The notes under the pieces were generated by a model. The model was not told where the DNA came from and did not search any database. It saw only the letters and a program-made list of their open reading frames with translations. A program made the position numbers and the translations under genes. Source: an uncultured Enterobacterales bacterium (GTDB lineage: Bacteria > Myxococcota_A > UBA796 > CAZKWG01). From it: a DNA stretch of 64,000 nucleotides. Shown here piece after piece: positions 1,941-57,050 of this stretch. Position 1 is the first letter of the stretch, and the number at the start of each line of letters is the position of its first letter. Location of the stretch: contig CAZTOW010000012.1 of the NCBI GenBank assembly GCA_964615375.1, forward strand, positions 1 to 64,000, given 5' to 3'.

Positions 1941-3716
1941 ATGACGCTCGCCCTGCTCTCGCTGCTCGGCTGCGAGCCGACCACCGGCAAGGTCCCCGGC
2001 GTGGTCGACAGCGCCCTCGACACCGCCAGCCCCCAGGACAGCCAGCCCTCCGAGGACCCCGACCCCGCGATCGAGCCCGTCCCCGGCACGGATCTGGACG
2101 ACGAGGGCTGCCCCACGCTCTACCAGCAGGACCGCCTCCCCGTCTTCGAGCTGGAGATCACCGAGGAGGACTGGGCGGCCTTGGAGGCTGACTACAGCAC
2201 GGGCGTCGAGCAGTACCACCCGACGACCTTCCTCTACCGGAACGCCTCCGGCGGCGAGCTGCGCGTCGAGGACGCCAGCGTGCGCCTGCGCGGCAACCCC
2301 GGCTTCTCCTGGATCGGCGAGAAGATGCAGTTCGGGATCGCGTTCAACGAGGAGGACCCGGAGGGGCGCTTCCTCGGGCTGCGCCACCTGAGCCTGGACG
2401 CCGTCTGGTACGAGCCGTCCATGCTGCGCGACCGGCTGGCCTACGCCTACCTGCGCCGCCTGGGCGTGCCCGCCCCCTGCGCCAACAACGCGGAGCTCTG
2501 GGTGAACGGCGCCTATTACGGTCTCTACAAGAATGTAGAGTACCCCGACCGGGAGTGGGTGGAGCGCGTCTTCGGCGACGACGACGCGACGGGCGTGCTG
2601 TGGAAGTACGGCAGCGATCCGACCGTCAACGCCGAGAGCGCCGACGCCGCGCACATGGCCGAGTTCTGGGCCAACACCAGCGTCGCCTGGCAGGAGGCTC
2701 ACACCGACCTGGACGCCAACGTGCTGGAGTGGGCGGGGGAGGTCGTGCTCCCGCAGAACGACGGCTACTGGTGCTGCAACCACAACTTCTACTTGTATGA
2801 GCACCCCACGCGCGGCATCCTGTTCCTGCCCTGGGACATGGACTTCGCGTTTGACGACACGCCCTACTTCGCCGACCCCAACACCTTCTATCGTGACTCC
2901 AACTACCAGCCGCACCTGGACGCCGTCAGCGCCGACCCCACCTGGGGCCCGGTCTTCCTGTCCGCGCTGCGGGAGGCGGTGGACGCCTATGACCCCGACC
3001 TGATGCAGGGCTGGCTGGACGAGTGGCAGGCGCAGATCGCGGCCTCCCACGCGGCCGATCCCCACACGCCCCACTCGGTGCAGACCCAACAGGACGCCTA
3101 CGAGAGGTTGCGCGCCTATCTGCGCAACCGCCACGCCTGGATGGACGCCTGGGTGCGCTGTCGAGAGGGCGAGGGGGACGGGGACGGCGACGGCGTCGGC
3201 CCCTGCTCTGACTGCGACGACGCGGACGCCAGCATCTACCCCGGGGCGACGGAGACCTGCGACGGACGCGACACCGACTGCGACGGGCTCGTGGACGACG
3301 CGCTCGGCTGCGACACCTGCGACGCCTACAGCTTCGAGTCCGGCGAGTTCCGTCTCTGCACGACGCCGATGAGCTGGGAGGACGCGCAGGCCGCCTGCGA
3401 GGCCGAGGGGGGCGAGCTCGGGTTCCCTCTCAGCTCTGGCGAGTGGTACGTGTACTGGTTGCACCAGTACTGGCAGGAGCTCGCCTGGCTCGGCGTCAGC
3501 ACCTGGTGGCTCGGGGCCACCGACGCGGCCAGTGAGGGGACCTGGCTCACGCCGAGCGGAGAGCCCGCTTCCCCCTGGGCGAGCTGGGGCGCGGGCACCC
3601 CCAACGGCGGCGCCTCCGAGCAGTGCGCCATGACCAGCCCGTACACCTGGACCTGGGACGACGCGGACTGCGCGCTGGAGAAGCCCGCGTTCTGCCGGGT
3701 GGAGCTGGGGCCTTGA
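1941..3716 (+). CDS. CotH kinase-family lipoprotein with C-terminal MopE-like Cys/Asp motif and C-type lectin domain
   Basis: Lipobox LLSLLGC. CotH-like core (LRDRLAYAYLRRLGVPAPCANNAELWVNGAYYGLYKNVE). Acidic GEGDGDGDG linker. CSDCDDADASIYPGATETCDGRDTDCDG motif. C-type lectin signature (WLGATDAASEGTW ... CAMTSPYTWTWDDADC). Confidence 0.8.
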   Translation: MTLALLSLLGCEPTTGKVPGVVDSALDTASPQDSQPSEDPDPAIEPVPGTDLDDEGCPTLYQQDRLPVFELEITEEDWAALEADYSTGVEQYHPTTFLYRNASGGELRVEDASVRLRGNPGFSWIGEKMQFGIAFNEEDPEGRFLGLRHLSLDAVWYEPSMLRDRLAYAYLRRLGVPAPCANNAELWVNGAYYGLYKNVEYPDREWVERVFGDDDATGVLWKYGSDPTVNAESADAAHMAEFWANTSVAWQEAHTDLDANVLEWAGEVVLPQNDGYWCCNHNFYLYEHPTRGILFLPWDMDFAFDDTPYFADPNTFYRDSNYQPHLDAVSADPTWGPVFLSALREAVDAYDPDLMQGWLDEWQAQIAASHAADPHTPHSVQTQQDAYERLRAYLRNRHAWMDAWVRCREGEGDGDGDGVGPCSDCDDADASIYPGATETCDGRDTDCDGLVDDALGCDTCDAYSFESGEFRLCTTPMSWEDAQAACEAEGGELGFPLSSGEWYVYWLHQYWQELAWLGVSTWWLGATDAASEGTWLTPSGEPASPWASWGAGTPNGGASEQCAMTSPYTWTWDDADCALEKPAFCRVELGP

Positions 3717-8776: not shown

Positions 8777-9466
8777 ATGATCCTGCTCGCCCTGCTGTTG
8801 AGCGCGTGTCGGTTCGAGGCCAGCTCGAAGATCAGCGACGACTCCGCCAGCGAGGGCGAAGGGGAGGGCGAGGGCGAGGGCGAAGGGGAGGGCGAAGGCG
8901 AAGGCGAGGGCGAGGGCGAGGGCGAGGAGCCCGACCCCGAGGACGTGGACGACGACGGCGACGGGATCACCGAGAACGACGGCGACTGCGACGACACCGA
9001 CGGCACGGTCTACCCGGGGGCCGAGGACGGCTGCGACGGCGTGGACGAGGACTGCGACGACGAGGTGGACGAGGACGCCTGGGCCGACGACGCCAACGAG
9101 CCGAACGACGACAGCGAGACCGATCTCGGCACCCTGGCCGAGGACGAGGTCATCAGCGCCTCCGGGATCCTGCACAACGACGAGGACGTGGACCTCTTCC
9201 TCTTCGACATGGAGGACTCGAGCTGGGGCTCCTTCGTGCTGACCGTGCGGCTGTCCGGCGTGCCCGACGACGCGGACTACGGGTTGAAGCTGGAGTTCCT
9301 GGACGGGGACGAGGTCATCGACCAGGTGGAGGGCGGGGGCACGCTCTCGATCGAGCTGGAGGACACGCTGGCCTACGAGGACGGCGGGACCTACCGGGTC
9401 ACCATCGACGCCGACAGCGGGGCGGACTGCAGCCGCAGCTACCTGCTCAGCCTGGATCTCGAGTAG
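8777..9466 (+). CDS. acidic lipoprotein with (GE)n linker, MopE-like Cys/Asp motif and pre-peptidase C-terminal-like domain
   Basis: RBS CAGGAGG upstream. Lipobox LLLSAC. (GE)x13 encoded by a (GAGGGC)n microsatellite. CDDTDGTVYPGAEDGCDGVDEDCDDE motif. Confidence 0.7.
   Translation: MILLALLLSACRFEASSKISDDSASEGEGEGEGEGEGEGEGEGEGEGEGEEPDPEDVDDDGDGITENDGDCDDTDGTVYPGAEDGCDGVDEDCDDEVDEDAWADDANEPNDDSETDLGTLAEDEVISASGILHNDEDVDLFLFDMEDSSWGSFVLTVRLSGVPDDADYGLKLEFLDGDEVIDQVEGGGTLSIELEDTLAYEDGGTYRVTIDADSGADCSRSYLLSLDLE
8853..8930 (+). repeat. (GAGGGC)n hexanucleotide microsatellite encoding (GE)13 linker
   Basis: Seen directly; inside the lipoprotein gene just after the lipobox. Confidence 0.9.
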
Positions 9467-16169: not shown

Positions 16170-16976
16170 CTACTCGAAGCGCAGGCTGGAGCGGCTGGCG
16201 AACACGTAGACGTCCACCCCGCGGCTGGAGAGCTCGTCGGCCAGGGGCGTGAGCACGGTGGTGGGCATGCCCATCGAGCGCCGGACGTCGCTGACCAGAT
16301 CCGCGAGCAGCAGCCGCTTCGGGGCCAGCCGCTCGACGCGGTCCAGGAAGCCCCGCTCGTGCCCGTAGTCCACGCCGCACAGCAGCCAGTCGGCCCCGCC
16401 AAAGCGAGCCGCGGCCTCCTCCAGCCAGCCCTGGGGCGTGTCGTTGTGCAACGCCAGGTTCAGGTGGACGAAGCGCCGGCCGCTGGGGAGGGTGAGGGCG
16501 TAGGCCCGCGGCTTCGCTCGGGGGAGCCGCAGGCGGTTGTAGAGGCGCGCGGCCCCCCGGCGCGGATCGGAGAGGGCCGACCACAGCTTCCAGCCGATCT
16601 CGGTCCCCTCGGCGTAGGCGATGGGCTCGAAGGGGATGGCCTCCACGCTCACGCCGTCCAGGGTGGTGGGCGTCTCCGCCCCGCGCACCTCGCCGAACTG
16701 TTGGAGCCAGTCCAGCACCTCGGGCGGGGCGATGACCGTGGGCCTCCGCCCGTCGCGCAGGGCGTGGGCGGTGGCGACGAGGCGCTCGTGCTCGCAGAAG
16801 CTGAGCAGGACCACGTCCTCGTCGGTGATGGGCTGGGTCAGCGGCGTCTCGCCCAGGGTGGCCCAGGGCTCGTCTGGGATGGGATCGATCCGCAGGCGCC
16901 GGCCGCGCCGCTCCAGGCGCAGCGAGGCGAAGCCCTCGTGCTCGATCCGCAGCTCCCAGGGGAAGGAATCAGGCAT
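16170..16976 (-). CDS. hypothetical protein
   Basis: Protein-like composition; start overlaps rocD stop (operon). No recognised domain. Confidence 0.55.
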   Translation of the reverse strand: MPDSFPWELRIEHEGFASLRLERRGRRLRIDPIPDEPWATLGETPLTQPITDEDVVLLSFCEHERLVATAHALRDGRRPTVIAPPEVLDWLQQFGEVRGAETPTTLDGVSVEAIPFEPIAYAEGTEIGWKLWSALSDPRRGAARLYNRLRLPRAKPRAYALTLPSGRRFVHLNLALHNDTPQGWLEEAAARFGGADWLLCGVDYGHERGFLDRVERLAPKRLLLADLVSDVRRSMGMPTTVLTPLADELSSRGVDVYVFASRSSLRFE

Positions 16977-18315: not shown

Positions 18316-19872
18316 GTGACCGGGGGTGCCTTGACGCTCTGCCTGCTCGCCGCGGTTGCCCTGGCCGGGTCCTCCACCTTGGAGCTCGAACCCGAGGATC
18401 TGGTGCGCGTGGACGTGCCGGACTACCCTGGCGCCCTGGCCACCAGCGCGCAGGGGAGCCTGCTCCTGGCCCCGCCCGAGGACGTCGCCTGGCGCCCAGA
18501 GCCCATCGGCGTGCCCGACACCTACGACGCCTGGGAGGCGAAGGAGGCCATGGACGTCGAGCCCTGGCACGAGGCCGGGGTGGACGGCAGCGGGGTCAAG
18601 GTGGCGGTCTTCGACTACCTGTGGTTCGGCAGCACGCTGGAGACCGAGGAGCTGGGCGCCTACGCCACCCACGACTGCCTGTCCCAGCGCTCCTGCGATC
18701 TGCCCTTCGACCCGGAGAGCCCGCAGTTCGGCTGGGAGGAGGGCAGCCACGGGCTCGCCTGCGCCGAGGTCATCCGCGACCTCGCCCCGGGGGTGGAGCT
18801 GCACCTGGTCCGCGTCAACGGGCTCACCAGCCTGGAGAACGGCGTGGACTGGGCGGCGCGCGAGGGCATCGACGTCATCAGCATGTCGCTCTCCTTCTTC
18901 GGGGAGAGCTTCTACGACGGGACCGGGGCGATCTCGGCGGCGGCGGAGCGCTTCTCCGCGTCGGGCGGGGTCTTCGTGACCAGCGCGGGGAACTACGCCG
19001 AGGAGCACCTGGCCGACAGCTTCCGCGACGGGGACGCGGACGGCTGGCACGAGTGGCCGAGCGGGCTCGAGACGCTGTCGGTGGAGCTCTCCGAGGGCAC
19101 GAGCTCGGTGCTGGTCCACTGGGACGAATTCGGCGACTGCGGGCAGACGGACCTGGACGTCTACGTCCTGGACAAGAACGGGGACGTGGTCGGGCGCAGC
19201 GAGAACCTGCAGGAGCCCATCGACGAGGACACGCAGGGCTGCTCGCCCACGGAGAAGGCCAGCGTCACGGCCTCCTACGACGGCTGGTACTGGATCATGG
19301 TGCGTCGGGCGGCGGGCGAGGAGGCGCCGCGCATGGCCCTCTTCGCGCGCGGGGGCGAGCTCTACAGCCCCACGCCCGAGGGCTCCATCGTGGACCCCGG
19401 CTCCAGCGCCGCGACGTTCACGGTGGGGGCGGTGCGGGCCACCGCCAGCTACCTCTCCAACGGGCCGGAGAGCTTCTCGTCCTGGGGGCCCACGCGCGGG
19501 GGGCTCAGCAAACCGGACGTCTCGGGCCCGGACGGGCTCAGCACCTCGGTCTACGGGCCCTCGGGCTTCTACGGGACCTCGGCCGCCACCCCGGCGGTGG
19601 CGGCGGCGGTGGCCCTGGTGCTGAGCGGCGATCCCTCGCTCACGCCGCAGCAGGCGGCCGAGCGCGTGCGCGCGACGGCGTGGAGCTCGGACGCGCTCTG
19701 GGCGGAGCCCGATCCGGGGCTGGGGGCCGGGCGTGCGCGCCTTCCTCCTCCCGAAACGTCTGTCGATGAGGGCGTCGGCTGCGGCGGGCGCGGCGCCCTG
19801 CTCCCGGGGCTGCTATGGTTCATGGTCGTGCGCAAGAGGCGCCTGGAGGCCCGGTGCGAGCTCCGTCCCTGA
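18316..19872 (+). CDS. S8 family (subtilisin-like) serine peptidase with MYXO-CTERM sorting domain
   Basis: Asp/His/Ser triad contexts (AVFDY, SHGLACAEV, GTSAATPAVAAAVAL). C-terminal GCGGRGALLPGLLWFMVVRKRR. GTG start after AGGAAG. The upstream part of the 1083-aa ORF is antisense to rocD and rejected. Confidence 0.8.
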   Translation: MTGGALTLCLLAAVALAGSSTLELEPEDLVRVDVPDYPGALATSAQGSLLLAPPEDVAWRPEPIGVPDTYDAWEAKEAMDVEPWHEAGVDGSGVKVAVFDYLWFGSTLETEELGAYATHDCLSQRSCDLPFDPESPQFGWEEGSHGLACAEVIRDLAPGVELHLVRVNGLTSLENGVDWAAREGIDVISMSLSFFGESFYDGTGAISAAAERFSASGGVFVTSAGNYAEEHLADSFRDGDADGWHEWPSGLETLSVELSEGTSSVLVHWDEFGDCGQTDLDVYVLDKNGDVVGRSENLQEPIDEDTQGCSPTEKASVTASYDGWYWIMVRRAAGEEAPRMALFARGGELYSPTPEGSIVDPGSSAATFTVGAVRATASYLSNGPESFSSWGPTRGGLSKPDVSGPDGLSTSVYGPSGFYGTSAATPAVAAAVALVLSGDPSLTPQQAAERVRATAWSSDALWAEPDPGLGAGRARLPPPETSVDEGVGCGGRGALLPGLLWFMVVRKRRLEARCELRP

Positions 19873-20861
19873 TCCCCGCTCTGTCGCTCACGGGGTGCCA
19901 CCTCTTCAGCGATGGCTATATCGAGTGTACGGCCCAGGGGCCGCAGTCGTGCTTCGAGGAAGGGGACACCGACACGGACACGGACACGGACACGGACACG
20001 GACACCGACACCGACACGGATCTCCCGGAGATGTCGCTCGGGGTCTCCCTCTCGTTTGGCGGCGAGGGGCTCTGGTGGGCGCAGAGCTGGGAGCCGCCGA
20101 GCTGGGACGGGCCGAGCATCACGCGCTCGGGCGAGAGCGGCGATCTGCTGGGGCCCGCCGACTACGACGTGGACGGCGAGGCCATCTACGTCGCCTCCTC
20201 CGACGGCAAGCTCTACCGGCTGCGCGGCGCCACCTCCAGCAGCCCCACCCAGACTTTCGCGCTGGGCGACGATGTGGTCCACGATCTGGCGGTGCAGGAG
20301 GGGGTGGCCTGGCTGGCCGGCTCCAGCACGCTCTACCGCCTGGATCCGACCAGCGGCTCGGGCGTGGAGAGCGTGGCGCTGGTGACCGAGGGGGGCGAGA
20401 GCCTCTCGGTCTCCTCGCTGGGCGCGGTGGAGTCGCGGAGCGGCGGCGTGCTGATCGTCAGCACGGACGCGACGGGCAACCAGGATCTGCTCTTCCTCGA
20501 GCCGGGATCGAGCGCGACGCGGAGCTTCACGACGGTCCTGGTGGACGACTTCCTCAGCGCGGGCGCGCTGGATGTGGCCGACGTCTTCTTCGGAGAGGAC
20601 GACAGCCCCTGGATCTGCGACGTCTCGGGCGTGATCTACCAGGTCTCCGAGCTCGCCGAGGGCAACTCCGACACGGCCCTCCGCCCGAACCGCGACGAAG
20701 ACTCCGATGTGCTGACCTGCGGCTGGGACGATAGTCTTCAGATGTTCGTCTTCGTCTCGGAGGGAGGCGGCGTCTTCGGCGTGGACAGCGACGGGGAGCT
20801 GACCTCGCTGCTGGAGCCGGAGGCGCAGGGCTACGAGATTCATGGCGCCGGGCTGTTCTGA
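19815..20861 (+). CDS. hypothetical lipoprotein with (DT)8 linker
   Basis: Lipobox LSLTGC; a GTG at 19854 is an alternative start. (GACACG)n microsatellite encodes DTDTDTDT. Beta-rich Ser/Gly-rich body. Confidence 0.6.
   Translation: MVHGRAQEAPGGPVRAPSLIPALSLTGCHLFSDGYIECTAQGPQSCFEEGDTDTDTDTDTDTDTDTDTDLPEMSLGVSLSFGGEGLWWAQSWEPPSWDGPSITRSGESGDLLGPADYDVDGEAIYVASSDGKLYRLRGATSSSPTQTFALGDDVVHDLAVQEGVAWLAGSSTLYRLDPTSGSGVESVALVTEGGESLSVSSLGAVESRSGGVLIVSTDATGNQDLLFLEPGSSATRSFTTVLVDDFLSAGALDVADVFFGEDDSPWICDVSGVIYQVSELAEGNSDTALRPNRDEDSDVLTCGWDDSLQMFVFVSEGGGVFGVDSDGELTSLLEPEAQGYEIHGAGLF
19965..20018 (+). repeat. (GACACG)n hexanucleotide microsatellite encoding (DT)8-9 linker
   Basis: Seen directly; just after the lipobox of the 19815 lipoprotein. 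Confidence 0.9.
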
Positions 20862-20903
20862 GACCCGGGCGCGCGGGTAAACTTCGAGCGAGGAGATTCC
20901 AGG

Positions 20904-23234
20904 ATGCGCGCTTCCGCTCTGCTGCTTGTCCTGCTGGTCGGCTGCCCGGCTCCCACCACGGAGGTCGAGCCCGTGATGAAGGCCGTCGAGGATCTCGACC
21001 AGATCGTCGACGTCGAGGTCGTGGACGCGCTGGGCGTGGGCACCGTCGAGGTCCCCGTCCGGCTGGTCAACGACTATGGGGCCGCCATCCCGGGGGGGAA
21101 CGTGACCGTCAGCGTGGAGGGCGAGACCGCCGCGCTGGCCGCCACCTCCATCGTGGTGGACGAGGGCGGCTACGGGGTGGCCGAGGTCGCCGTGGACGGC
21201 TCGGAGGCGTTCACGCTCACGGTGGTGAGCACGGACGTCGGCGTGAGCGGCGGCGCCTCCGGGCAGGGCTTCGGGGTGGCCGGCGCCGCGCCCGACCTGG
21301 CCATCGACGCTGGGCTCGCGCTCTCCGACGACATCCACAACCCGGACTTCTTCGCCCGGGGCTCGCGGGGCTTCGCCGTGGCGAAGGACAACCTGGTCTG
21401 GTACGTGCCGGCCAGCTCGGGCACGCCGGCCCACCAGGTCGCGGCCTTCCCCTTCTCCATCGAGGGGATGTGGGCCTGCAACCTGGACACGGACGGGGTG
21501 CTGGACCTGGCGCTCTGGGGGGAGGACCAGGCGGTCTTCCTGCGCGGGCGCGCCGCGGGCGGCTACAGCTGGGGCGGGGCCTGGCAGGCGGACGCGGGCG
21601 ACGTGGTCGGCGTGGGCGTGGACGACCTGGACGGCGACCGGCTGCCCGACGTGGCGATCGGCATGAGCTCCAGCGAGTCGGGCTCGGTGCAGATCCTCAC
21701 GGGTGATGGGGCCTGGGGCTTCGAGCCCACCGACAGCCTGGACCTGAACTTCGAGATCATGGGCCTGGCCGCGGCGGACGAGGGGGACGACGGCACGGCG
21801 GAGGTCACCGTGCTGGCTACCTCCACCGGCTACCTGCGCCGCTACACGCAGTCCGAGGACGGCTGGATCGGCGCCACCGCGCCGGAGCTCGGGGAGGGCT
21901 TCCTCGACGAGTTCGCCGGGGCCACGGGCGCGGTGCTCATGCCGGCGGTGGACCTGAACGCCAACGGCGAGGAGGACTACATCCTCGTCGCCCCCACCGG
22001 GACCTCGCAGACCATCAAGTTCCTCACCATCGAGGACGAGGTCACCTACTTCACCCTGGAGTACAGCCAGGCCAACCCGACCACCGGCGACCTGGACCCG
22101 GGCTCGCCCGACGAGCTGGTGGTGCTGGACGCCGAGGGCGGCAACGTGCTGGCCTTCCAGGGAGAAGGCTCGGATCCGCAGTACCGCTCGCGCTCGATCT
22201 CGCTGGGCGACGTGCCCGCGCCCATCGCGCTGGTGGACGCGGACCAGGACGGCACCCTGGACGTCGGCGTGGCCACGGACATGGTCGCGCTCTACCGCGG
22301 GCAGGCCACGGAGGGGGTCTGGGACAACCAGGATCTGACCTGGCGCGCCTACGACGCCGACCTGAGCGGGCCGGTGGTGTACGGGGACTTCGACGGCGAC
22401 GGGCTGGTGGACTTCGCCAGCCTGACGGACGAGTCGGGCACGGCCACCCTGGAGCTCTGGTTCTTCTCGGTCGCGACGGGCGAGATCAAGCTGGTCAGCG
22501 GCGACGATCTGGACCTGGACGAGCTGGAGGGCAAGAGCCTGGCGGTGTGCCAGGAGGGCGACGACTTCATCTTCTACGCCGTCGTCAGCTCCGGCAGCAC
22601 GGACATGCTGAACCGCCTGCGCTACGAGCCGGGCACCAGCACGCTCTCGCTGGAGGCCAGCGCCATGGTGTCCGGCGATCACGTCGGCTGCGGCGACTTC
22701 GGCTCGGGCGAGGTGGCGGTGGCCAACAGCGCGGGCGCCTGGCAGGCCTACAGCTACAGCGAGGCCAGCGGGCTGACCGCCAGCACGGAGTCCGGCTCGC
22801 TGGGCTCGGTGTACGCGGCCACGGCGGCGGACACCGACGGCGACGGGATCGCCGAGATGGTGGGGTGCTCGGACAGCGGCTGCTCCATCGTGGCCGGCGA
22901 CATCGACGGGGACGGCGCGGACGAGGTCGTGACCGGCGGCAGCGCGCTGGGCTACGAGGACGACGGCAGCAGCAGCACGCTCGGCCTGGGCGGCGCGGTC
23001 TCGCTGGTGGACACCGACGGGGACGGGCACCTGGACGTGGTCTCGGTGGACGCCGAGGAGGGCCGGATCTACTTGCTGCGTGGCCTGGTGGGCGGGCTCG
23101 CCCCCGCGGTGCTGATGCACACGGAGCGCGAGATCGAGGGCACCGGCACGCTGGGCGACGTCAACGGCGACGGGACACCTGAGCTGGTGGTCGGCGGGAC
23201 CGGCGGCTCCATCCTCCACACGGACGCGGACTGA
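20904..23234 (+). CDS. FG-GAP/VCBS-repeat lipoprotein
   Basis: Lipobox LLVGC. Multiple DxDGDGxxD FG-GAP-like calcium-binding loops (DLDGDRLPD, DFDGDGLVD, DTDGDGIAE, DIDGDGADE, DTDGDGHLD, DVNGDGTPE). Confidence 0.8.
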   Translation: MRASALLLVLLVGCPAPTTEVEPVMKAVEDLDQIVDVEVVDALGVGTVEVPVRLVNDYGAAIPGGNVTVSVEGETAALAATSIVVDEGGYGVAEVAVDGSEAFTLTVVSTDVGVSGGASGQGFGVAGAAPDLAIDAGLALSDDIHNPDFFARGSRGFAVAKDNLVWYVPASSGTPAHQVAAFPFSIEGMWACNLDTDGVLDLALWGEDQAVFLRGRAAGGYSWGGAWQADAGDVVGVGVDDLDGDRLPDVAIGMSSSESGSVQILTGDGAWGFEPTDSLDLNFEIMGLAAADEGDDGTAEVTVLATSTGYLRRYTQSEDGWIGATAPELGEGFLDEFAGATGAVLMPAVDLNANGEEDYILVAPTGTSQTIKFLTIEDEVTYFTLEYSQANPTTGDLDPGSPDELVVLDAEGGNVLAFQGEGSDPQYRSRSISLGDVPAPIALVDADQDGTLDVGVATDMVALYRGQATEGVWDNQDLTWRAYDADLSGPVVYGDFDGDGLVDFASLTDESGTATLELWFFSVATGEIKLVSGDDLDLDELEGKSLAVCQEGDDFIFYAVVSSGSTDMLNRLRYEPGTSTLSLEASAMVSGDHVGCGDFGSGEVAVANSAGAWQAYSYSEASGLTASTESGSLGSVYAATAADTDGDGIAEMVGCSDSGCSIVAGDIDGDGADEVVTGGSALGYEDDGSSSTLGLGGAVSLVDTDGDGHLDVVSVDAEEGRIYLLRGLVGGLAPAVLMHTEREIEGTGTLGDVNGDGTPELVVGGTGGSILHTDAD

Positions 23235-47493: not shown

Positions 47494-48348
47494 ATGGACC
47501 TCTTCCGCACCCCCACCCGTCACGCCGGCGGCGAGGCCGACCTCGTCGTCCTCGACCCGGATCATCCCGGCTTCCGCGATCCCGCCTACCGGGCGCGCCG
47601 CGACCAGATCGCGCGCCTGGCCCTGGCGCACCAGACCGGCCAGCGCGTGGTGTCGGTGGACTACACGGCCGAGGAGCACGAGACCTGGCGCACGGTCTGG
47701 GGTCGGCTGGCGCCGCTGCACCGCGCGCGGGTGTGCCGGGAGATCCTGGAGCTCCAGGAGATCCTGCCGCTGCCGCACGAGGCCATCCCCCAGCTCGAGG
47801 ACCTGAACCCCATCGTGGACGCCGTGGCCGGCTTCCGGCTGGAGCCCGTGGCGGGCCTGGTCAGCCCGCGCACCTTCCTGCGCTACCTCGGGCGGCGGGT
47901 CTTCCTCAGCACCCAGTACATCCGCCACCCCAGCCGGCCCTTCTATACGCCCGAGCCCGACGTCGTCCACGAGCTGGTGGGCCACGTCGCGACCCTGGTC
48001 CACCCCGGGATCGCCGAGCTCAACCGCGTGCTGGGCGAGGCGGCGGAGGTGGCCGACGAGGCGGAGATGGCGCGGCTCGACCGGGTGTACTGGTACACGC
48101 TCGAGTTCGGCGTGGTCCTCCAGGACGGTGAGCCCCGGGCGTTCGGCGCCGGGCTGCTGTCGAGCGTGGGCGAGCTCGCCGAGTATGACCGGCACGCCAC
48201 CCTCACCGGCTGGGACGTGGACCGCATGGCGGCCACCCCCTTCGACCCGACGCGCTACCAGGACGTGCTCTTCGTCGCGCCCTCGTTCACGCGCCTGCTG
48301 TGCGACACGGCGGCCTGGGTGCGGACCGGGCGCTGGCGGGCGGCTTAG
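47494..48348 (+). CDS. phhA: phenylalanine 4-monooxygenase (aromatic amino acid hydroxylase)
   Basis: Iron-ligand motif PDVVHELVGHVATL ... E; biopterin hydroxylase family, monomeric bacterial size. Confidence 0.85.
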   Translation: MDLFRTPTRHAGGEADLVVLDPDHPGFRDPAYRARRDQIARLALAHQTGQRVVSVDYTAEEHETWRTVWGRLAPLHRARVCREILELQEILPLPHEAIPQLEDLNPIVDAVAGFRLEPVAGLVSPRTFLRYLGRRVFLSTQYIRHPSRPFYTPEPDVVHELVGHVATLVHPGIAELNRVLGEAAEVADEAEMARLDRVYWYTLEFGVVLQDGEPRAFGAGLLSSVGELAEYDRHATLTGWDVDRMAATPFDPTRYQDVLFVAPSFTRLLCDTAAWVRTGRWRAA

Positions 48349-51300
48349 CGCGCCTCCGACGTGTCCGCCCCGTTCGCGCACTGGGCGTCGTCGGCGTCCA
48401 CCTTCCCGTCCAGATCGTTGTCACGCCCGTCGTTGCACTGGGTGGAGCCGTAGCCGCCGGTCTCCTCCTCGACGTAGATCGAGGTGCAGACAGGGTCGTC
48501 GAGGTCAACCCAGCCGTCGTCGTCATTGTCGATCCCGTCGTTGCACTCCGTCTCTGGATCCGTCTCGTCATCATCGGTCGCGCTGATGCAGCCGAGATCG
48601 GCGGAGTCGGTGAGCCCGTCGCCGTCGTCGTCCTCGCCGTCGTTGCAGGCGGTCAGGCCGAAGATGGCGCCGTCCTCGGCGTTGTCGTCCGCGTCGGTAC
48701 AGTCGGGGTCGTCGAGGTCGTACCAGCCGTCGCCGTCGTTGTCGCTGTCGTCCTCACACTGCGGGATGTGCGTCTCATCGGTGTCGAAGGCGCTCTCGCA
48801 GCCCGGATCGGAGGCGTCGGCGTCGCCGTCGCTGTCGTCGTCCACCTCGTTGTTGCAGGTGAAGCCGTCCTCGTAGCCCAGCTCCTCGCCGGCCCAGGCG
48901 CAGTCCGGGTCGTCGTCGTCTGTCCAGCCGTCGCCGTCGCCGTCGATCCCGTCGGCGCAGTCCGCGCCTTCGACGTCCTCGGACTCCGAGCTGTCCAGCG
49001 CGCTCTCGCAGTCGGGGTCGTCCGCGTCGGCGTCGCCGTCGCCGTCGTCGTCCTCGCCGTCGTTGCACACGGTGTCGCCCGTGCCGCGCTCGGCCACGCC
49101 GCTGACGCAGTCGGGGTCGTCCACGTCGATCCATCCATCACGATCATTGTCGCTGCTGTCAGCGCAGCCGGGGCCTGTGTTGGTCTCCAACGGATCGAGC
49201 GCGCTGGTGCAGCCGTAGTCCGTCGCGTCGATGACGCCGTCGCTGTCGTCGTCCTCCTGGTTGTTGCAGGGCAGGTCGCCGTAGCCCACCTCGCTGTCGC
49301 CCACGAAGCAGTCGGGATCCTCCTCGTCGGTCCAGCCGTCGCCGTCCTCGTCGGCGCCGTCCTCGCAGGTCCCGGTGGTGGGGCCCTCCACCGTGTCGCG
49401 CGCCCTGGCGCAGTCGGGGTCCTCGGCGTCGATGAGACCGTCGTCGTCGTCGTCCTCGCCGTCGTTGCAGGCGGTGGCGCCGTAGCCCTCCTCCGTGTCT
49501 CCGCCGTCGCAGTCGGGGTCCGCCGCGTCGGTCCAGCCGTCGCCGTCCTCGTCCTCGCCGTCCGAGCAGTCCACGGAGGCGGCCTCCTCCTGCGCGTCCC
49601 AGCCGTCGGCGCAGTCCTCGTCGTCGGCGTCGGTGTAGCCGTCGCCGTCGCCGTCGTCCCCGTCGTTGCAGCCGAGGGTGGAGAGGCCGATCTCGTCGTC
49701 GTAGAGCGTGCAGTCGGGGTCCGCGAGGTCCGACCAGCCGTCGGCGTCGTCGTCGCGGCCGTTGGCGCAGGGGCCCGGGTCCGGGGCCTCGTCGTCGTCC
49801 CAGGCGGCGCCGCAGTCGGGGTCGTCGCCGTCGATGCTGTCGTCACCGTCGTCATCGACGCCGTTGCTGCAGGCGAAGTCGCTGGTGCCCGACTCGGCGT
49901 CGCCGCTCAGGCAGTCCAGGTCGTCGGTGTCGATGTAGCCGTCGCCGTCGTCGTCCGCGCCGTCCGCGCAGCTCTCGGCGTCGGCGTCCTCGACCGTGTC
50001 GAAGGCGTTGGCGCAGCCCGGGTCCGCGCCGTCCAGGCGCAGGTTGCCGTCGTCGTCCAGCCCGTTGTTGCAGGCGATGGAGCCGTAGCCGAGCTCGGCG
50101 TCGCCGTCTGCGCAGTCGGGATCCTCGGCGTCCACCCAGCCGTCCAGGTCGTTGTCCGAGCCGTCGATGCAGCCGTCCCCGCCCGCGCCGACCTCTACGT
50201 CGCCGGACGCGCAGTCGGGGTCGTCCGCGTCGGTGAGCCCGTCCTCGTCGTCGTCTACGCCGTTCTCGCACTCGGTGGTGGCGGTGGGCTCGTCGTCGGC
50301 GCCGTCGGCGCAGTCGGTGTCGGCGCTGTCGATGGCCCCGTCGCGGTCGTTGTCGAGCCCGTCGTTGCACCCGGCGTCGGAGAGGCCGAGCTCGGCGTCC
50401 CCGCTGGTCGAGCAGTCCGGGTCCTCGTCGTCGATCCAGCCGTCGGCGTCGTTGTCCTCGCCGTCCCCGCAGGGCTCGCTCTCGTCGTCGTCGCTGGCGT
50501 CCAGGCAGCCCGCGTCCTCGCCGTCGATGAGCCCGTCGTCGTCGTCGTCCTCGCCGTCGTTGCAGGCGGTGGCGCCGTAGCCCGCCTCGGGCCCGCCGCC
50601 GTCGCAGTCAGGGTCGGCGGCGTCGGTCCAGCCGTCGCCGTCGTCGTCCAGATCGTCGGCGCAGCTCCCGGACTCGTCGTCGTCCCACGCGTCGTCACAG
50701 TCGGCGTCGAAGGCGTCGATGTCGCCGTCGCCGTCGTCGTCCTCGCCGTCGCTGCACTCGGAGACGGCCTCGAACGCGCCCTCGTCGTCGTCCAGATCGT
50801 CGTCGCAGCCCGGGTCGTCCAGGTCCACCCAGCCGTCGCCGTCGCCGTCGAGCCCGTCCTCGCAGGCGTTGGCCTCGCTGTCGTCGAGCGCGTCCGCACA
50901 CGAGGGGTCGAGCCCGTCGGCGAGCCCGTCGCCGTCGTCGTCCTCGCCGTTGTTGCAGGCCAGATCGGAGTAGCCCGCCTCGGCGTCGCCGGAGGTGCAG
51001 TCGGGATCGTCGGCGTCCGTCCAGCCGTCCTCGTCGCCGTCGAGCCCGTCCTCGCAGTCGGGCTGGGCCTCGTCGTCGTCCAGCGCGTCCTCGCACTCGG
51101 GGTCGGCGCTGTCGATGGAGCCGTCACCGTCGTTGTCGGCGAGGTCATTGCAGTCGGTCCCGCCCGCCCCCAGCTCCTCGTCGCCGAACTGGCAGTCGGG
51201 ATCTTCCAGGTCCACCCAGCCGTCGCCGTCGCCGTCCTCACCGTCCGCGCAGGGATCGGCCTCGGTGGCCTCGTCGTCGTCCGCCGCGTGGTCGCAGTCG

Positions 51301-51956
51301 GGGTCCTCGCTGTCGATGGCCAGATCGCCGTCGTCGTCCTCGCCGTTGTTGCAGGCGTGGTCGCCGTAGCCCTTCTCCTCGGTGCCCGCCGCGCAGTCGG
51401 GGTCCCGCCCGTCGGTCCAGCCGTCCCCGTCGTTGTCTTCGCCGTCCTCGCAGCCGGAGACCTCCACGATTCCCGTGAGCGTGACGGACTCGCGCTGGAT
51501 CTGCTCGCCCACGAACTCGAGCGGGCCGAGCACGTCCGAGCTGCTCACCAGCGCGCCCCCGCTGAGGCCGAGGGCCCACACGTCGAAGGGGTCGTTGCCC
51601 TCTCCGGGCTGGAGCTCGATGTCGGCCAGCCAGTCGCCCTCGGTGAGCGGGCTCACGCTCACCACCAGCTCCAGGTTGGCGTCGCCGGTGTCCGCGTCGC
51701 TCAGGCTGGCGTCGTCGCCGTCGTAATCCTCGGGCTGGAGCGCGATGCCGTGCTCGTCGGAGAAGGGCAGCGACGGGTCCACCACCAGGCGCACCTCGTC
51801 GAGCTGCCCGCGCATGGCCTCGACGTCGTCGGCGACCACGCGGATCTGGATGGCCGTCCGCGGCGGCTCGCCGCAGGCCGTGAGCAGGAGCAGCAGGACA
51901 AGGGTCCTCAGGGGAGCACCACGCACGGGAGCACCACGCACGGGAGCACTACTCAT
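48345..51956 (-). CDS. giant hyper-acidic repeat lipoprotein (~30 tandem Cys-bracketed DxDxDG TSP3/MopE-like modules)
   Basis: Lipobox LLLLLTAC. About 15 alternating pairs of CxDGxDxDxDGWxDxxDPDC and ACN(D/N)GxDDDxDGxxDxxDxxC modules; roughly 35% Asp+Glu. Start ATGA-coupled to the PEGA gene. Converges stop-to-stop with phhA. Confidence 0.8.
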   Translation of the reverse strand: MSSAPVRGAPVRGAPLRTLVLLLLLTACGEPPRTAIQIRVVADDVEAMRGQLDEVRLVVDPSLPFSDEHGIALQPEDYDGDDASLSDADTGDANLELVVSVSPLTEGDWLADIELQPGEGNDPFDVWALGLSGGALVSSSDVLGPLEFVGEQIQRESVTLTGIVEVSGCEDGEDNDGDGWTDGRDPDCAAGTEEKGYGDHACNNGEDDDGDLAIDSEDPDCDHAADDDEATEADPCADGEDGDGDGWVDLEDPDCQFGDEELGAGGTDCNDLADNDGDGSIDSADPECEDALDDDEAQPDCEDGLDGDEDGWTDADDPDCTSGDAEAGYSDLACNNGEDDDGDGLADGLDPSCADALDDSEANACEDGLDGDGDGWVDLDDPGCDDDLDDDEGAFEAVSECSDGEDDDGDGDIDAFDADCDDAWDDDESGSCADDLDDDGDGWTDAADPDCDGGGPEAGYGATACNDGEDDDDDGLIDGEDAGCLDASDDDESEPCGDGEDNDADGWIDDEDPDCSTSGDAELGLSDAGCNDGLDNDRDGAIDSADTDCADGADDEPTATTECENGVDDDEDGLTDADDPDCASGDVEVGAGGDGCIDGSDNDLDGWVDAEDPDCADGDAELGYGSIACNNGLDDDGNLRLDGADPGCANAFDTVEDADAESCADGADDDGDGYIDTDDLDCLSGDAESGTSDFACSNGVDDDGDDSIDGDDPDCGAAWDDDEAPDPGPCANGRDDDADGWSDLADPDCTLYDDEIGLSTLGCNDGDDGDGDGYTDADDEDCADGWDAQEEAASVDCSDGEDEDGDGWTDAADPDCDGGDTEEGYGATACNDGEDDDDDGLIDAEDPDCARARDTVEGPTTGTCEDGADEDGDGWTDEEDPDCFVGDSEVGYGDLPCNNQEDDDSDGVIDATDYGCTSALDPLETNTGPGCADSSDNDRDGWIDVDDPDCVSGVAERGTGDTVCNDGEDDDGDGDADADDPDCESALDSSESEDVEGADCADGIDGDGDGWTDDDDPDCAWAGEELGYEDGFTCNNEVDDDSDGDADASDPGCESAFDTDETHIPQCEDDSDNDGDGWYDLDDPDCTDADDNAEDGAIFGLTACNDGEDDDGDGLTDSADLGCISATDDDETDPETECNDGIDNDDDGWVDLDDPVCTSIYVEEETGGYGSTQCNDGRDNDLDGKVDADDAQCANGADTSEAR

Positions 51957-53071
51957 GGCAGCACCACGACGGTCTCGCTCTCCGGGACCGGCTCCGGGGT
52001 CAGCGCGTTGGCCAGCAGCACGCCCCCGGCGGCGGCGGCTCCGGCGCCCAGGGTGACGCCGCCCCAGAAGGTCCAGCGCGCCAGCAGGGGGCGCTCGCGC
52101 AGGAGCTTGCCGGTGCCGCTCTCGCCCTCGCGGACCAGCTCGGCCCGGTAGAGCAGCTTGCCCTTGGGCGGGACCTCCAGCGTCTGCTCGAGGGCCTGGT
52201 ATCCCGGGGCGCTCACGCTGAGGCGGTAGCGCCCGCGCTCCAGCTCGGCGACGCGCACCACCTCACCCTCGCCGAGGAGGTGGCCCTCCAGGCGCACCGC
52301 GCCCTGCGGATGGCCGGTCTCGATGACCAGCCCCGCGCCCTCCGGGGGCAGGGAGACGGTGACCTCACCCTTCGATCCATTTGAATTGTCGAAGCGTCGA
52401 AAGACCGTCGCGTACTCGGCGAGCTCCAGGCGCACGACGTGAGCGCCGGGCGGCACGCCCTCTACCGAGAGCGGCGTGTCTCCGATGCTCTTGTCGTCCA
52501 GCCAGACGCGCGCCGGGGCGGGGGTGGAGCTCACCTGAAGCAGGCCCGCCGTGCTCTTCAGCCGCACGTTGAAGAGCAGGTTCTTCCCCTTGACGAAGGT
52601 GAAGCTGCCCTCTTCGGGCTCGTGGCCGGGAGCGCTGATGGTGTAGCGGTACTCCCCCGGGCTCAGGTCGCGCAGGCGCACCGGGGTGGGGACGGGATCG
52701 GCGCCGTTGAGCACCAGCTTCGCCCCGCCCGGCTGGACCAGGAACTCCACCGTGCCCTGGCCGGCGACGAGCTGGGCCGCGACCTCCAGGGTGGTGCCGG
52801 GGCTGACCTCGACCCGGCGCACGAAGGGGTCGTGCCCGTCGGCGGCCACGCGGATCAGGTGCATCCCGGCCGACAGGTAGCGCACGACCGGGGCCTCGCC
52901 CACCACCTCGTTGTCCACGTAGACGGTGGCGCCAGCCACGGGGCTGGTGATGCGGACGATGCCGGTGGGGGCGGCCTGCTCCTGCGCCTGGGCAGGGGGC
53001 GCGAGGCCGATCAGGGCGCCGAGGCCGAGGGCCAGGACCAGGAGCAGGGGAGCGGGGCGCTGCGCACGCAT
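51953..53071 (-). CDS. PEGA-domain protein (signal peptide, three to four PEGA repeats, C-terminal TM anchor)
   Basis: Signal peptide ending AQAQE. Repeated P(E/G)GA-type motifs (SPGEYRY, PPGAHVVR, ERGRYRL). C-terminal WTFWGGVTLGAGAAAAGGVLL TM helix. Confidence 0.75.
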   Translation of the reverse strand: MRAQRPAPLLLVLALGLGALIGLAPPAQAQEQAAPTGIVRITSPVAGATVYVDNEVVGEAPVVRYLSAGMHLIRVAADGHDPFVRRVEVSPGTTLEVAAQLVAGQGTVEFLVQPGGAKLVLNGADPVPTPVRLRDLSPGEYRYTISAPGHEPEEGSFTFVKGKNLLFNVRLKSTAGLLQVSSTPAPARVWLDDKSIGDTPLSVEGVPPGAHVVRLELAEYATVFRRFDNSNGSKGEVTVSLPPEGAGLVIETGHPQGAVRLEGHLLGEGEVVRVAELERGRYRLSVSAPGYQALEQTLEVPPKGKLLYRAELVREGESGTGKLLRERPLLARWTFWGGVTLGAGAAAAGGVLLANALTPEPVPESETVVVLP

Positions 53072-53111
53072 GACCTCTGAAGGGTATCAGAGTTCCACCT
53101 GGCCGGCAGGC

Positions 53112-54929
<1,818 letters not shown>

Positions 54930-54932
54930 GCT

Positions 54933-55880
54933 TCAGGTCCTCGTGAGCCTGCGGAAGACCTCTTCCAGGTTGCTGCGCTCCAGCGTGAGCTCCAGCAGCA
55001 CGAGGCCCTGGTCCACCGCGAGCTGGAAGAGGGCGGGGCGCAGGTCGGCGCGGGCCAGGACCTCCAGCGCCATGTGCGCGGGGTCCTCGTCCTCCAGCGT
55101 GCGGACGCGCTCGACGTCGGTCAGGGCCTCGACGGCTTGGACCACCGCCTCGCGCCGGGGCGCCACCTTGCCGGGGGCGTAGGTGACGCGCATCAGGCGC
55201 CCGCCCTGGTCGCGCAGGGTGACCTCGCCCGTGGGGCCGTCGGCCACGATCTCGCCCTTGTTGACGATGATCACGCGGTCGCAGGTGGCCTGGACCTCCG
55301 ACAGGATGTGCGTGGACAGCAGCACCGTCTTCTTGCGGCCGATCTCCCGGATCAGGTTGCGGATGTCCACGATCTGGTTCGGGTCGAGGCCGGTGGTGGG
55401 CTCGTCCAGGATGAGGATGCTCGGGTCGTGCAGCAGGGCCTGGGCGAGCCCGGTGCGCTGGCGGTAGCCCTTGGACAGCGTGCCGATGGCCTGGTCCATG
55501 CGGTCGGTGACGCCGCAGAGGCCGGCGACGCGCTCGATGGCGGTGGCGCGCTCGGCCGAGCCGAGGCCGCGGACCCGACCCACGAAGTCCAGGTAGTCGC
55601 CCACGCGCATCTCGGTGTAGAGCGGCGCGCTCTCCGGCAGGTAGCCGATCTTCGCGCGGGCCTCGATGGGCTCGTCCAGCACGTCGTGGCCCTCGATGGC
55701 GGCCTGCCCCCCGCTCGGCGTCAGGAAGCCCGTCAGGATCTTCATCGCCGTGGACTTGCCCGCGCCGTTGGGGCCCAGGAAGCCCACGACCTCGCCGTGC
55801 TCGACCGAGAAGCTGATCCCGCGCAGCGCGACGTGGTTCCCGTAGGACTTTCGGAGCTCGCGGACCTCGATGGCGGACAT
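54933..55880 (-). CDS. ABC transporter ATP-binding protein (ABC-2 type), no adjacent permease
   Basis: Walker A GPNGAGKST; signature LSKGYRQR; Walker B ILILDEP. The ORF-track 762-aa frame continues upstream antisense to the Rpn gene and is rejected beyond 55880. Confidence 0.85.
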   Translation of the reverse strand: MSAIEVRELRKSYGNHVALRGISFSVEHGEVVGFLGPNGAGKSTAMKILTGFLTPSGGQAAIEGHDVLDEPIEARAKIGYLPESAPLYTEMRVGDYLDFVGRVRGLGSAERATAIERVAGLCGVTDRMDQAIGTLSKGYRQRTGLAQALLHDPSILILDEPTTGLDPNQIVDIRNLIREIGRKKTVLLSTHILSEVQATCDRVIIVNKGEIVADGPTGEVTLRDQGGRLMRVTYAPGKVAPRREAVVQAVEALTDVERVRTLEDEDPAHMALEVLARADLRPALFQLAVDQGLVLLELTLERSNLEEVFRRLTRT

Positions 55881-56050
55881 GGGGACCCTCAGGCAGGACC
55901 ATAACACCCGATGACCGGCGGAGGCGGGGCGGGGGAGGGCTGCGATAGCTCCAGGAGGGCACATGGTCGCTGCTCGGCGCGGTCCTGGCCTCCGTCGGGC
56001 GCTCCCGGCGTTCGAGGCGAGCTCTCCGCACCTGAACACACTCCCGGTAG

Positions 56051-56070
56051 CCGGACATTTTCTGTCCGCC
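56051..56070. promoter_or_regulatory. hairpin motif CGGACA-TTTTC-TGTCCG upstream of the Rpn-family gene
   Basis: Same stem as the 34690/34721 hairpins; 41 bp upstream of the 56112 ATG. Confidence 0.45.
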
Positions 56071-56111
56071 TCATTTTGCCTGCCCGCGAGCCCAGGTCTA
56101 AGGGGGCGGGC

Positions 56112-57050
56112 ATGATGAAGCATCGAATCAACCCTCTCATCGACTGCGTGTTCAAGCGGCTGATGGGCACGGCCGAGAACCTCGACCTGCTCGCCAGCTT
56201 CCTGAACGCGCTCCTCGCTCCCCCCAACCCCATCGTCTCGCTGACGCTGGTGGACACCCACGTCAAGAAACAGACCCGCAAGGATGACACCACCATCGTG
56301 GACGTGCTGGCGACGGACAGCGCCGGCTACGTCTACCAGGTCGAGGTGCAGCTCACCCGCCACACCTGGCTGTTGGAGCGGATGCTCTACTGCTGGGCCG
56401 ACATCTACCAGGAGCAGATCCAGGCGGGCCAGGACTTCGACGTGCTGCGGCCGGTGATCTCCATCTGGATCCTGGATCGCCCCGTGTTCCGCGGTCACGG
56501 ACCCTGGCACCGACGCTTCCAGGTGCGCGACGACCACGAGGGGGCCCTGCTCAGCCCGCACCTCGACATCCACACCGTCGAGCTCAACAAGTGGCGCCCC
56601 CCGAGCGAGGCCCCCCTTGTCGCGCTGGACCGTTGGATGTACTTCTTCAAAGAGGCGCGCGCGTGGACCTCCCTGCCCGAGGTCCTCGACAGCCCGGAGA
56701 TGAGGAAGGCCATGAGCGTGATCGAGCGCTGGTCGGAGAAGGAGAGCGACTACCGCGCCTACCGCAGGCGGCTCCACGCGCTGCGCGTGAGCCGGATCCA
56801 GGAGAAGGAGCGGGTCCAGCTCCGGGAGGAGAAGAGCCAGCTTCTGGAGGAGACTGGCCTGCTTCGGGGCGAGAAGGCCGCCCTCCAAGGCGAGAAGGCC
56901 GCCCTCCAAGGCGAGAAGGCCGCCCTCCAAGGCGAGAAGGCCGCCCTCCAAGGCGAGAAGGCCGCCCTCCAAGGCGAAAACCAGCAGCTCCATACCGAGC
57001 TCGAGGCCCTCCGGGCCGAGCTCGCGCGCCTGCGCGCCGCGGGGGCCTGA
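56112..57050 (+). CDS. Rpn-family recombination-promoting nuclease / putative transposase (PD-(D/E)XK, YhgA-like) with C-terminal coiled-coil heptad repeats
   Basis: N-terminal LIDCVFKRLMG ... LLASFLNALL typical of the YhgA/Rpn family. C-terminal (GEKAALQ)x5 then ELEALRAELARLRAAGA. Confidence 0.8.
   Translation: MMKHRINPLIDCVFKRLMGTAENLDLLASFLNALLAPPNPIVSLTLVDTHVKKQTRKDDTTIVDVLATDSAGYVYQVEVQLTRHTWLLERMLYCWADIYQEQIQAGQDFDVLRPVISIWILDRPVFRGHGPWHRRFQVRDDHEGALLSPHLDIHTVELNKWRPPSEAPLVALDRWMYFFKEARAWTSLPEVLDSPEMRKAMSVIERWSEKESDYRAYRRRLHALRVSRIQEKERVQLREEKSQLLEETGLLRGEKAALQGEKAALQGEKAALQGEKAALQGEKAALQGENQQLHTELEALRAELARLRAAGA
56869..56973 (+). repeat. five perfect tandem copies of a 21-bp unit GGCGAGAAGGCCGCCCTCCAA
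   Basis: Seen directly in the sequence, inside the Rpn gene 3' region; in-frame heptad coiled-coil. Confidence 0.9.

Follow-up and report, generated by a model that had tools for sequence, protein, structure and literature searches.

What would an uncultured bacterium do with a lipoprotein in which more than one residue in four is aspartate, encoded directly behind a PEGA-domain gene and selB? The question is raised by a 1203-aa protein (here the giant) encoded on contig CAZTOW010000012.1 of assembly GCA_964615375.1, assigned to Myxococcota_A, of which positions 1 to 64,000 of the forward strand were analysed (the window). A preliminary description made from the letters alone had recognized a lipoprotein of about 30 alternating ~20-aa modules and likened them to thrombospondin type-3 (TSP3) or MopE-like metal-binding loops. 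Here, we place the giant in a known repeat family and relate its module to the loop by which the teneurin C-rich domain binds calcium, a relationship from which calcium binding is quite probable and from which, together with the conserved gene arrangement, we propose a role in the cell envelope.

Architecture of the giant lipoprotein

The gene is an intact open reading frame (ORF) of 1203 codons with a GC content at third codon positions (GC3) of 0.95, in a window of ~72% GC. Its product begins with MSSAPVRGAPVRGAPLRTLVLLLLLTAC, a signal peptide terminating in LLLLLTAC that fits the lipobox pattern [LVI][ASTVI][GAS]C, and on these features the giant is predicted to be an exported, lipid-anchored lipoprotein, as first described. 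Every orthologue likewise has a lipobox (LAAC, LTGC, LTAC, LSAC or LVGC). An exact-sequence look-up returned no record of the protein.

The 63 cysteines comprise the lipobox cysteine and 62 residues in 31 pairs, all spaced exactly C-x18-C, and the modules so bounded are joined by linkers of 12–18 aa. Aspartate accounts for 27.7% of the residues and glutamate for 8.1%, with 20 lysines and arginines taken together, four histidines and two methionines. The mature chain, of 120.8 kDa, carries a charge of about -413 at pH 7 and has an isoelectric point (pI) of ~2.5 under a simple pKa model, in agreement with the very low value anticipated. In all orthologues the array ends 10 residues before the stop codon, with nothing distal to it.

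The modules follow the consensus C-x-[DN]-G-x-D-[DN]-D-x-D-G-x-x-D-x-x-D-P-D-C. Within the window, positions 1, 6, 8, 14, 17 and 20 never vary, D or N stands at positions 3 and 10 in 31/31 modules, and the core DxDxDGxxDxxD (D6-x-D8-x-D10-G11-x-x-D14-x-x-D17) holds in 28–31 of the 31. Across three orthologues, all 115 modules have D (or D/N) at positions 3, 6, 8, 10, 14 and 17; position 7 is D, N or E in 109 of them and position 19 is acidic in 78. Two types were distinguished, a W/Y type with linker xxGDxExGYGxxA and a CN[DN]G type with linker xxAxDDDE...; their alternation, already described at first, is interrupted at modules 12–13 and 18–20. Identity among the window modules averages 12.1/20, and no copy of the 20-aa module occurs in the window outside the giant. 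In the DNA of the array, Tandem Repeats Finder (TRF) detects periods of 99 and 201 bp at a match of only 61–73%, which indicates that the array is old and not a recent expansion.

Family membership and relationship to the teneurin C-rich loop

The giant belongs by score to NCBIfam family NF033662, 'acidic double-disulfide repeat-containing protein', which matches it over 21 stretches with 385.5 bits (cutoff 41; E 2.4e-118). This is a naming model whose definition leaves outside it the N-terminal domain, the PEGA partner and the selB neighbourhood discussed below, and in the literature we found neither a function for the family nor a paper that uses its name or treats bacterial arrays of this kind. 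The kind of protein is already known and its calcium chemistry is predictable; the arrayed minimal form, the N-terminal domain, the obligatory PEGA partner and the persistent selB neighbourhood appear to be undescribed in the literature searched. Pfam returned nothing for the whole protein at E<=0.01 or for segments of 96–132 aa at E<=10, searches in which HMMER filters could conceal weak matches; the profiles that the giant fails include TSP_3/TSP3_bac, PF11617 (MopE-type), low-density lipoprotein receptor class A (LDL-A) and dockerin.

Profiles built from 15 double modules and from 31 single modules were searched against all sequences of the Protein Data Bank (PDB). The sole meaningful matches were teneurin C-rich domains (7plp_A, 7bam/7ban, 6cmx, 8fia and 9g42), with 7plp_A at E 6e-5 for the double-module and E 9e-6 for the single-module profile; no thrombospondin, LDL-A, dockerin or MopE chain appeared at E<=10. 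The C-rich domain of teneurin-4 (Ten4; 7PLP) binds three octahedral Ca2+ ions, all via residues 835–856, through the side chains of E835, D840, D843, N844, D845, D847, D851, D854 and D856 and the backbone carbonyls of A837, K842 and L849 (PMC9058538). Sites I and II are TSP3-like and site III is LDL-A-like, C838 and C857 form a disulfide, stability is calcium-dependent, and the domain packs against the transthyretin-like (TTR) domain (PMC9058538).

Numbered through the alignment printed in PMC9058538, C838 falls at module position 1 and C857 at position 20, and positions 3, 6, 7, 8, 10, 14, 17 and 19 correspond to D840, D843, N844, D845, D847, D851, D854 and D856. The Ten4 loop, C-x-D-x-x-D-N-D-x-D-G-x-x-D-x-x-D-P-D-C, shares with the module the bracketing disulfide, seven of the eight acidic ligands and N844, all at equal spacing, and the giant's modules conform to the general teneurin loop pattern Cx(D/N)xxDx(D/E)xDxxxD...(D/E)C with its cysteine bracket. 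Mean identity of the window modules to the human Ten4 loop is 11.3/20 (57%). It rises to as much as 15/20 with a diatom glucanase, whose sequence was aligned by Tucker et al. with the teneurin core and with the MopE motif (PMC3278476).

The likeness ends with the loop. The teneurin C-rich domain (human teneurin-4 residues 834–871) occurs once per protein, whereas the giant has 31 tandem copies; its six cysteines, paired 1–3, 2–5 and 4–6 in a consensus with the tail CCxxxxCxxxxxC (PMC3278476, PMC9058538), contrast with two per module, with no CC and no downstream cysteine. Teneurins also have a conotoxin-like C-terminal half, which the modules lack, and a Glu conserved at position -3 from the first cysteine, where the modules are rarely acidic; and the TTR domain that teneurin carries on the same chain has its counterpart, in the giant's system, in the transthyretin-like PEGA domains of a separate protein. 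Four of the teneurin cysteines and the conotoxin-like tail are missing, and the module is a minimal relative, not a full C-rich domain: on alignment it is a two-cysteine version of the N-terminal loop, to which it is probably homologous.

An AlphaFold2 (AF2) model of modules 20–23 is confident (predicted local distance difference test, pLDDT, 89.4) and almost without secondary structure. TSP3 repeats, the calcium 'wire' of PDB 1UX6, share with the modules DxDxDGxxDxxD near a cysteine and, probably, a fold held by Ca2+ rather than by secondary structure, but cysteine pattern and repeat length differ and no profile matched. The CDGxDNDxDG core of PF11617 is related too, but has an extra cysteine inside it (DND-C-DG) and one residue fewer after the first cysteine. 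The early comparison with TSP3 and MopE thus holds for the calcium-type DxDxDGxxDxxD core, now with teneurin homology added, and not for membership of the TSP_3, PF11617, LDL-A or dockerin families.

N-terminal domain, orthologues and paralogues

Between the lipobox and the array lies a domain (N-domain, residues 29–168) that has neither a Pfam match nor a word-indexed homologue. When 1.84 billion representatives were searched exhaustively with phmmer, 13 true relatives emerged, all of them lipoprotein N-termini leading directly into the same modules and most cut by contig ends, and AF2, given the alignment of these 13, predicted a confident beta-sandwich. The N-domain occurs in none of the best 120 module-sharing proteins.

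True orthologues were identified via synteny and the PEGA gene. Each relative with the PEGA gene also has an intact giant gene, and the number of modules varies among these relatives, a comparison that the preliminary description had proposed as a check. The window protein (1203 aa, 31 modules) is matched in copy number by that of context L091 (1186 aa, 31 modules), followed by L001 (1428 aa, 38–39 modules), L092 (1428 aa, 39), L093 (1426 aa, 39), L003 (1698 aa, 46) and L094 (1708 aa, 47), and the gene is split in L086, where at least 35 modules were counted. Aspartate makes up 26–28% of all orthologues, and repeat units are 55–70% identical both within and between genomes. Copy number changes in the middle of the array, since both of its ends stay collinear.

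The module itself is widespread, being found in more than 1000 proteins, mostly from Myxococcota-type metagenome-assembled genomes (MAGs) and many of them lipoproteins, which add TIG, LTD, beta-helix, PPC, Stig1, VWA or CarboxypepD_reg domains. In paralogues such as P0029 and P0114, CarboxypepD_reg (transthyretin-like) domains and acidic modules of this type are fused in a single chain. These fusions recall both the PEGA/giant gene pair and the teneurin C-rich/TTR pair. The contexts of two further paralogues, P0003 and P0007, contain unrelated neighbours, with no PEGA gene and no selB, so coupling to PEGA and selB is specific to the giant's orthologous group.

Gene neighbourhood: PEGA, selB and an ABC ATPase

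The positions of the giant gene, its parts and its upstream neighbours are given in Table 1.

Table 1. Coordinates of the giant gene and of the genes upstream of it in the window.
Feature	Position	Strand	Details
Giant acidic repeat lipoprotein gene	48345..51956	(-)	1203 aa; mature 1175 aa, 120.8 kDa, charge ~-413
Signal peptide with lipobox L-T-A-C (Cys28, +2 Gly)	51873..51956	(-)	Sequence
Family-specific N-terminal beta-sandwich domain (predicted), residues 29-168	51453..51872	(-)	
Array of 31 Cys-bracketed acidic modules with acidic linkers, residues 169-1193	48378..51452	(-)	
15-bp tandem array, 4.1 copies, across PEGA stop and giant start	51912..51972	(-)	TRF
PEGA-domain protein gene	51953..53071	(-)	372 aa; PF08308, 144.1 bits vs 20.8, E 1.2e-42, 4 stretches
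selB	53112..54929	(-)	605 aa; TIGR00475, 318.9 bits vs cutoff 242.25
ABC-2-type ATPase gene	54933..55880	(-)	315 aa; PF00005

The PEGA gene lies directly upstream of the giant in every context with enough sequence. As noted at the outset, its stop codon and the giant's ATG overlap as ATGA in the window, and the stop/start overlap CTGCCATGA is kept in the window, L001, L086 and L091–L094. In the PEGA protein, a signal peptide and four PEGA repeats are followed by a hydrophobic segment near the C-terminus and by a conserved acidic tail whose last residues are LP; the PEGA domains also match the carboxypeptidase-regulatory (transthyretin-like) profile PF13620 (E 2.2e-15), and we found 36 orthologues at E below 1e-59. 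At its C-terminus (51953–52010; likewise in L001 and L003), Arg residues precede the Gly/Ala-rich hydrophobic segment, and the tail then reads P[DE]P[VIL]P..[DE]..V.LP.

The 15-bp N-terminal duplication pointed out in the preliminary description corresponds to the TRF array that spans this junction. Its first copy is formed by the five final codons, and hence the 3' end, of the PEGA gene itself, so slippage at the junction accounts for the signal-peptide n-region made longer by the APVRG duplication. The duplication is missing from the signal peptides of the orthologues; the 31-module protein of L091 begins with MRAAILLLLLTAC, without it. At the other end, the stop codon of the giant overlaps convergently (48345–48348) that of a gene for a biopterin-dependent aromatic amino-acid hydroxylase (47494–48348; PF00351, E 9e-76), which leaves no space for a terminator between the two.

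The window selB encodes the SelB wing 2, wing 3 and beta-barrel domains (PF09106, PF09107 and PF25461), and its closest relatives, at 54–63% identity, come from uncultured Myxococcota MAGs. It lies upstream of the PEGA–giant pair in nine of ten contexts (window, L001, L003, L087, L089 and L091–L094), with the gene order kept at gaps of 30–150 nt while PEGA identity drops to 45%; in the window the selB–PEGA gap is 40 nt, as first measured. We regard selB as a conserved upstream neighbour that is probably co-transcribed with the pair. It is present without the pair in L002, L004 and L005. The sole context without selB is L086 (4428–7826), where a thioredoxin-like gene (WCSPC) and a VKOR-DsbA-FGE-sulfatase fusion immediately precede the pair; these neighbours suggest a dedicated disulfide-forming system for the array, a setting that fits the giant because its array would need 30–47 disulfides.

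We found no functional connection of the PEGA–giant pair to selenocysteine. The window holds no tRNA, tRNA-Sec, Rfam family, selA, selD, selenoprotein candidate or convincing gene with an in-frame TGA, as the preliminary description had stated for selA, selD and selenoproteins. In-frame stop junctions at 11432, 16170 and 20862 were considered as selenocysteine codons and proved to be ordinary gene boundaries, that at 16170 being TAG. The thioredoxin-like gene of L086 was likewise considered as a selenoprotein and rejected, since its motif WCSPC has Cys, not Sec.

The ABC ATPase had been proposed as the first member of the same unit, and this part of the coupling did not hold across genomes. 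PEGA and selB are consistently linked to the giant, whereas the ABC ATPase precedes selB in the window, L001, L002 and L091–L093 and is missing from L003, L089 and L094; it is divergent from a ttcA-like gene wherever present, and no permease gene lies beside it in any context. It is probably a neighbour and not part of the functional unit. Its nearest NCBIfam model is that of the gliding-motility ABC ATPase GldA (TIGR03522), whose 402.6-bit equivalog cutoff it misses at 341.5 bits; it is a generic ABC-2-type ATPase. The gap to selB is 2–3 nt in the window (54930–54932, the 3 nt initially reported) and in L091 (7109–7112), and in L001, L002, L092 and L093 the two genes are separated by a small ORF (158–384 aa) called on the opposite strand.

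Other genes in the window

Two further lipoproteins had been said to carry the giant's motif. What they contain is a single PF11617 motif (CDGxDxDCD) with different cysteine spacing, at E 3.8e-11 in ORF 1941–3716 and E 1.5e-7 in ORF 8777–9466, a motif related to that of the giant but different from it. The first (+) joins a CotH kinase domain, the PF11617 motif and a C-type lectin domain in an unusual architecture; the second (+), a small lipoprotein, combines a (GE)14 run, the motif and an uncharacterized C-terminal domain. At 19815–23234 (+) lie two adjoining lipoprotein-like genes, the first with a (TD)n run and the second (776 aa) with FG-GAP/VCBS repeats, and in L083, a paralogous acidic-repeat lipoprotein locus, an FG-GAP protein is also encoded just upstream. 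A PD-(D/E)XK 'transposase' gene (Rpn-like; PF12784, E 2e-44) occupies 55911–57050 (+), with the ttcA-like gene on one side and the ABC ATPase gene on the other. It looks like a genome-specific insertion, because these two are direct divergent neighbours in L001, L002, L091 and L092, and its 3' part (56868–56977) contains a perfect 21-bp tandem repeat of 5.2 copies encoding GEKAALQ heptads.

A proposed calcium-loaded envelope protein and its alternatives

Homology to a solved structure makes it quite probable that the giant's loops bind calcium, as the preliminary description had suggested; the cell-surface matrix role that it also raised is a conjecture. With moderate confidence, we further propose that the giant is an exported, disulfide-stapled and Ca2+-loaded rod or scaffold of the envelope, or a calcium sink, acting with the PEGA protein. 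A Dsb-type oxidase would close the disulfide of each loop in the oxidising extracytoplasmic space, and each closed loop would hold two Ca2+ at TSP3-like sites, with a third in modules whose positions -3 and 19 are acidic, for a total load of ~60–90 Ca2+ per molecule. The chain would then be held together by ions and not by a hydrophobic core. Unloaded, the giant would be a self-repelling polyanion; as the ions form the core of the fold, loading would convert it into an elongated, rigid, calcium-dependent rod that collapses without calcium.

The conserved stop/start overlap would have the giant made in fixed proportion with the PEGA protein, itself predicted to comprise four transthyretin-like beta-sandwich domains and a C-terminal anchor. 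The two proteins would probably form one envelope structure, with the N-domain as the likely contact. In the cell envelope this structure would likely act as a calcium-loaded structural layer or as a sink with a high capacity for calcium. Many low-pI Ca2+ sites per chain, together with calcium-dependent rigidity, are also features of calsequestrin, Asp-rich shell proteins and calcium-rigidified adhesin repeats. The resemblance is one of function only, with no relationship in sequence or fold, and to our knowledge none of them has disulfide-closed loops.

Several points weigh against this proposal. The AlphaFold models carry no ions, and all-oxygen ligand sets also suit Mg2+, Mn2+, Fe3+ or lanthanides. 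Only 18 of the 115 modules of three orthologues (7/31 in the window) have an acidic residue at the equivalent of E835, and 22/31 window modules have one at that of D856, position 19; the third Ca2+ site is for this reason probably incomplete in many modules. Both the localization of the giant, in the periplasm or at the cell surface, and its contact with the PEGA protein are suggested by gene arrangement. Finally, given the N-terminal signal peptide of the PEGA protein, the charges flanking its hydrophobic segment run opposite to the positive-inside pattern of a normal inner-membrane anchor, and because of this reversal the segment may serve in sorting or docking instead of being a plain anchor.

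Among the alternatives, sequestration of another hard cation (Mg2+, Mn2+, Fe3+, lanthanides or uranyl) or of copper, for metal storage or detoxification, fares best, and we consider it improbable. Ligands made up entirely of carboxylate or amide oxygens, together with the extreme charge density, would serve such a purpose, the same core was aligned with the copper motif of MopE by Tucker et al. (PMC3278476), and PF11617 'putative metal-binding' motifs occur in two lipoproteins encoded nearby. However, the only solved homologue binds Ca2+, at octahedral sites, and PF11617 does not recognize the giant's modules; the chemistry of a soft metal such as Cu is unlikely, because the giant has only four His and two Met and its cysteines are placed as disulfide pairs.

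There is less to be said for control of mineral formation, through nucleation or inhibition of calcium carbonate or phosphate at the cell surface in the manner of mollusc Asp-rich shell proteins. An Asp content of 27.7%, a net charge of -413 and the lack of a distal 'head' domain, which would make the polyanion itself the functional part, are compatible with this analogy, but ligands fixed without variation at specific positions and cysteines spaced exactly C-x18-C point to discrete folded sites rather than to a diffuse polyanionic template, and no mineralisation genes were recognized in the flanks; we think such a role unlikely. We hold an equally low opinion of the idea that the giant is a calcium-stiffened spacer or adhesin stalk, as the modules seem to be in many multidomain paralogues, with no dedicated part in calcium handling: although more than 1000 proteins, many of them lipoproteins, combine such modules with TIG, LTD and other domains, nothing lies distal to the array in the orthologues that a stalk could present. 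A selenium-related pathway uniting selB, PEGA and giant, for which the order conserved in 9/10 contexts speaks, is very improbable, given that in-frame TGA codons are absent from both genes of the pair, that selA, selD, tRNA-Sec and selenoprotein candidates are absent from the window, that pair and selB occur apart (the pair in L086; selB in L002, L004 and L005) and that the L086 thioredoxin-like gene has Cys, not Sec.

Possible significance for envelope calcium handling and teneurin origins

The packing of C-rich against TTR domain in teneurin suggests a parallel, at this stage an analogy, with the PEGA/giant pair. A bolder and rather doubtful extension would make the PEGA protein and the acidic array a free-living C-rich/TTR unit, co-transcribed with selB and serving as a dedicated, high-capacity calcium store or as an envelope scaffold switched by calcium, with ~60–140 Ca2+ per molecule across orthologues. 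Were this so, a myxobacterial origin would be simpler than the diatom or algal transfer proposed in 2012.

If the favoured reading of a calcium-loaded envelope rod or sink is correct, the giant and its orthologues would be among the densest predicted bacterial calcium-binding polypeptides, with one site-bearing loop per 33 residues and 31–47 loops per chain. The 7PLP template, a conserved partner and natural copy-number variants make calcium handling in the envelope of uncultured Myxococcota testable. The finding also bears on the origin of the teneurin C-rich domain: Myxococcota is the phylum richest in teneurin-like proteins (PMC13018210), and the more than 1000 proteins that carry the loop lie mostly in Myxococcota as well.

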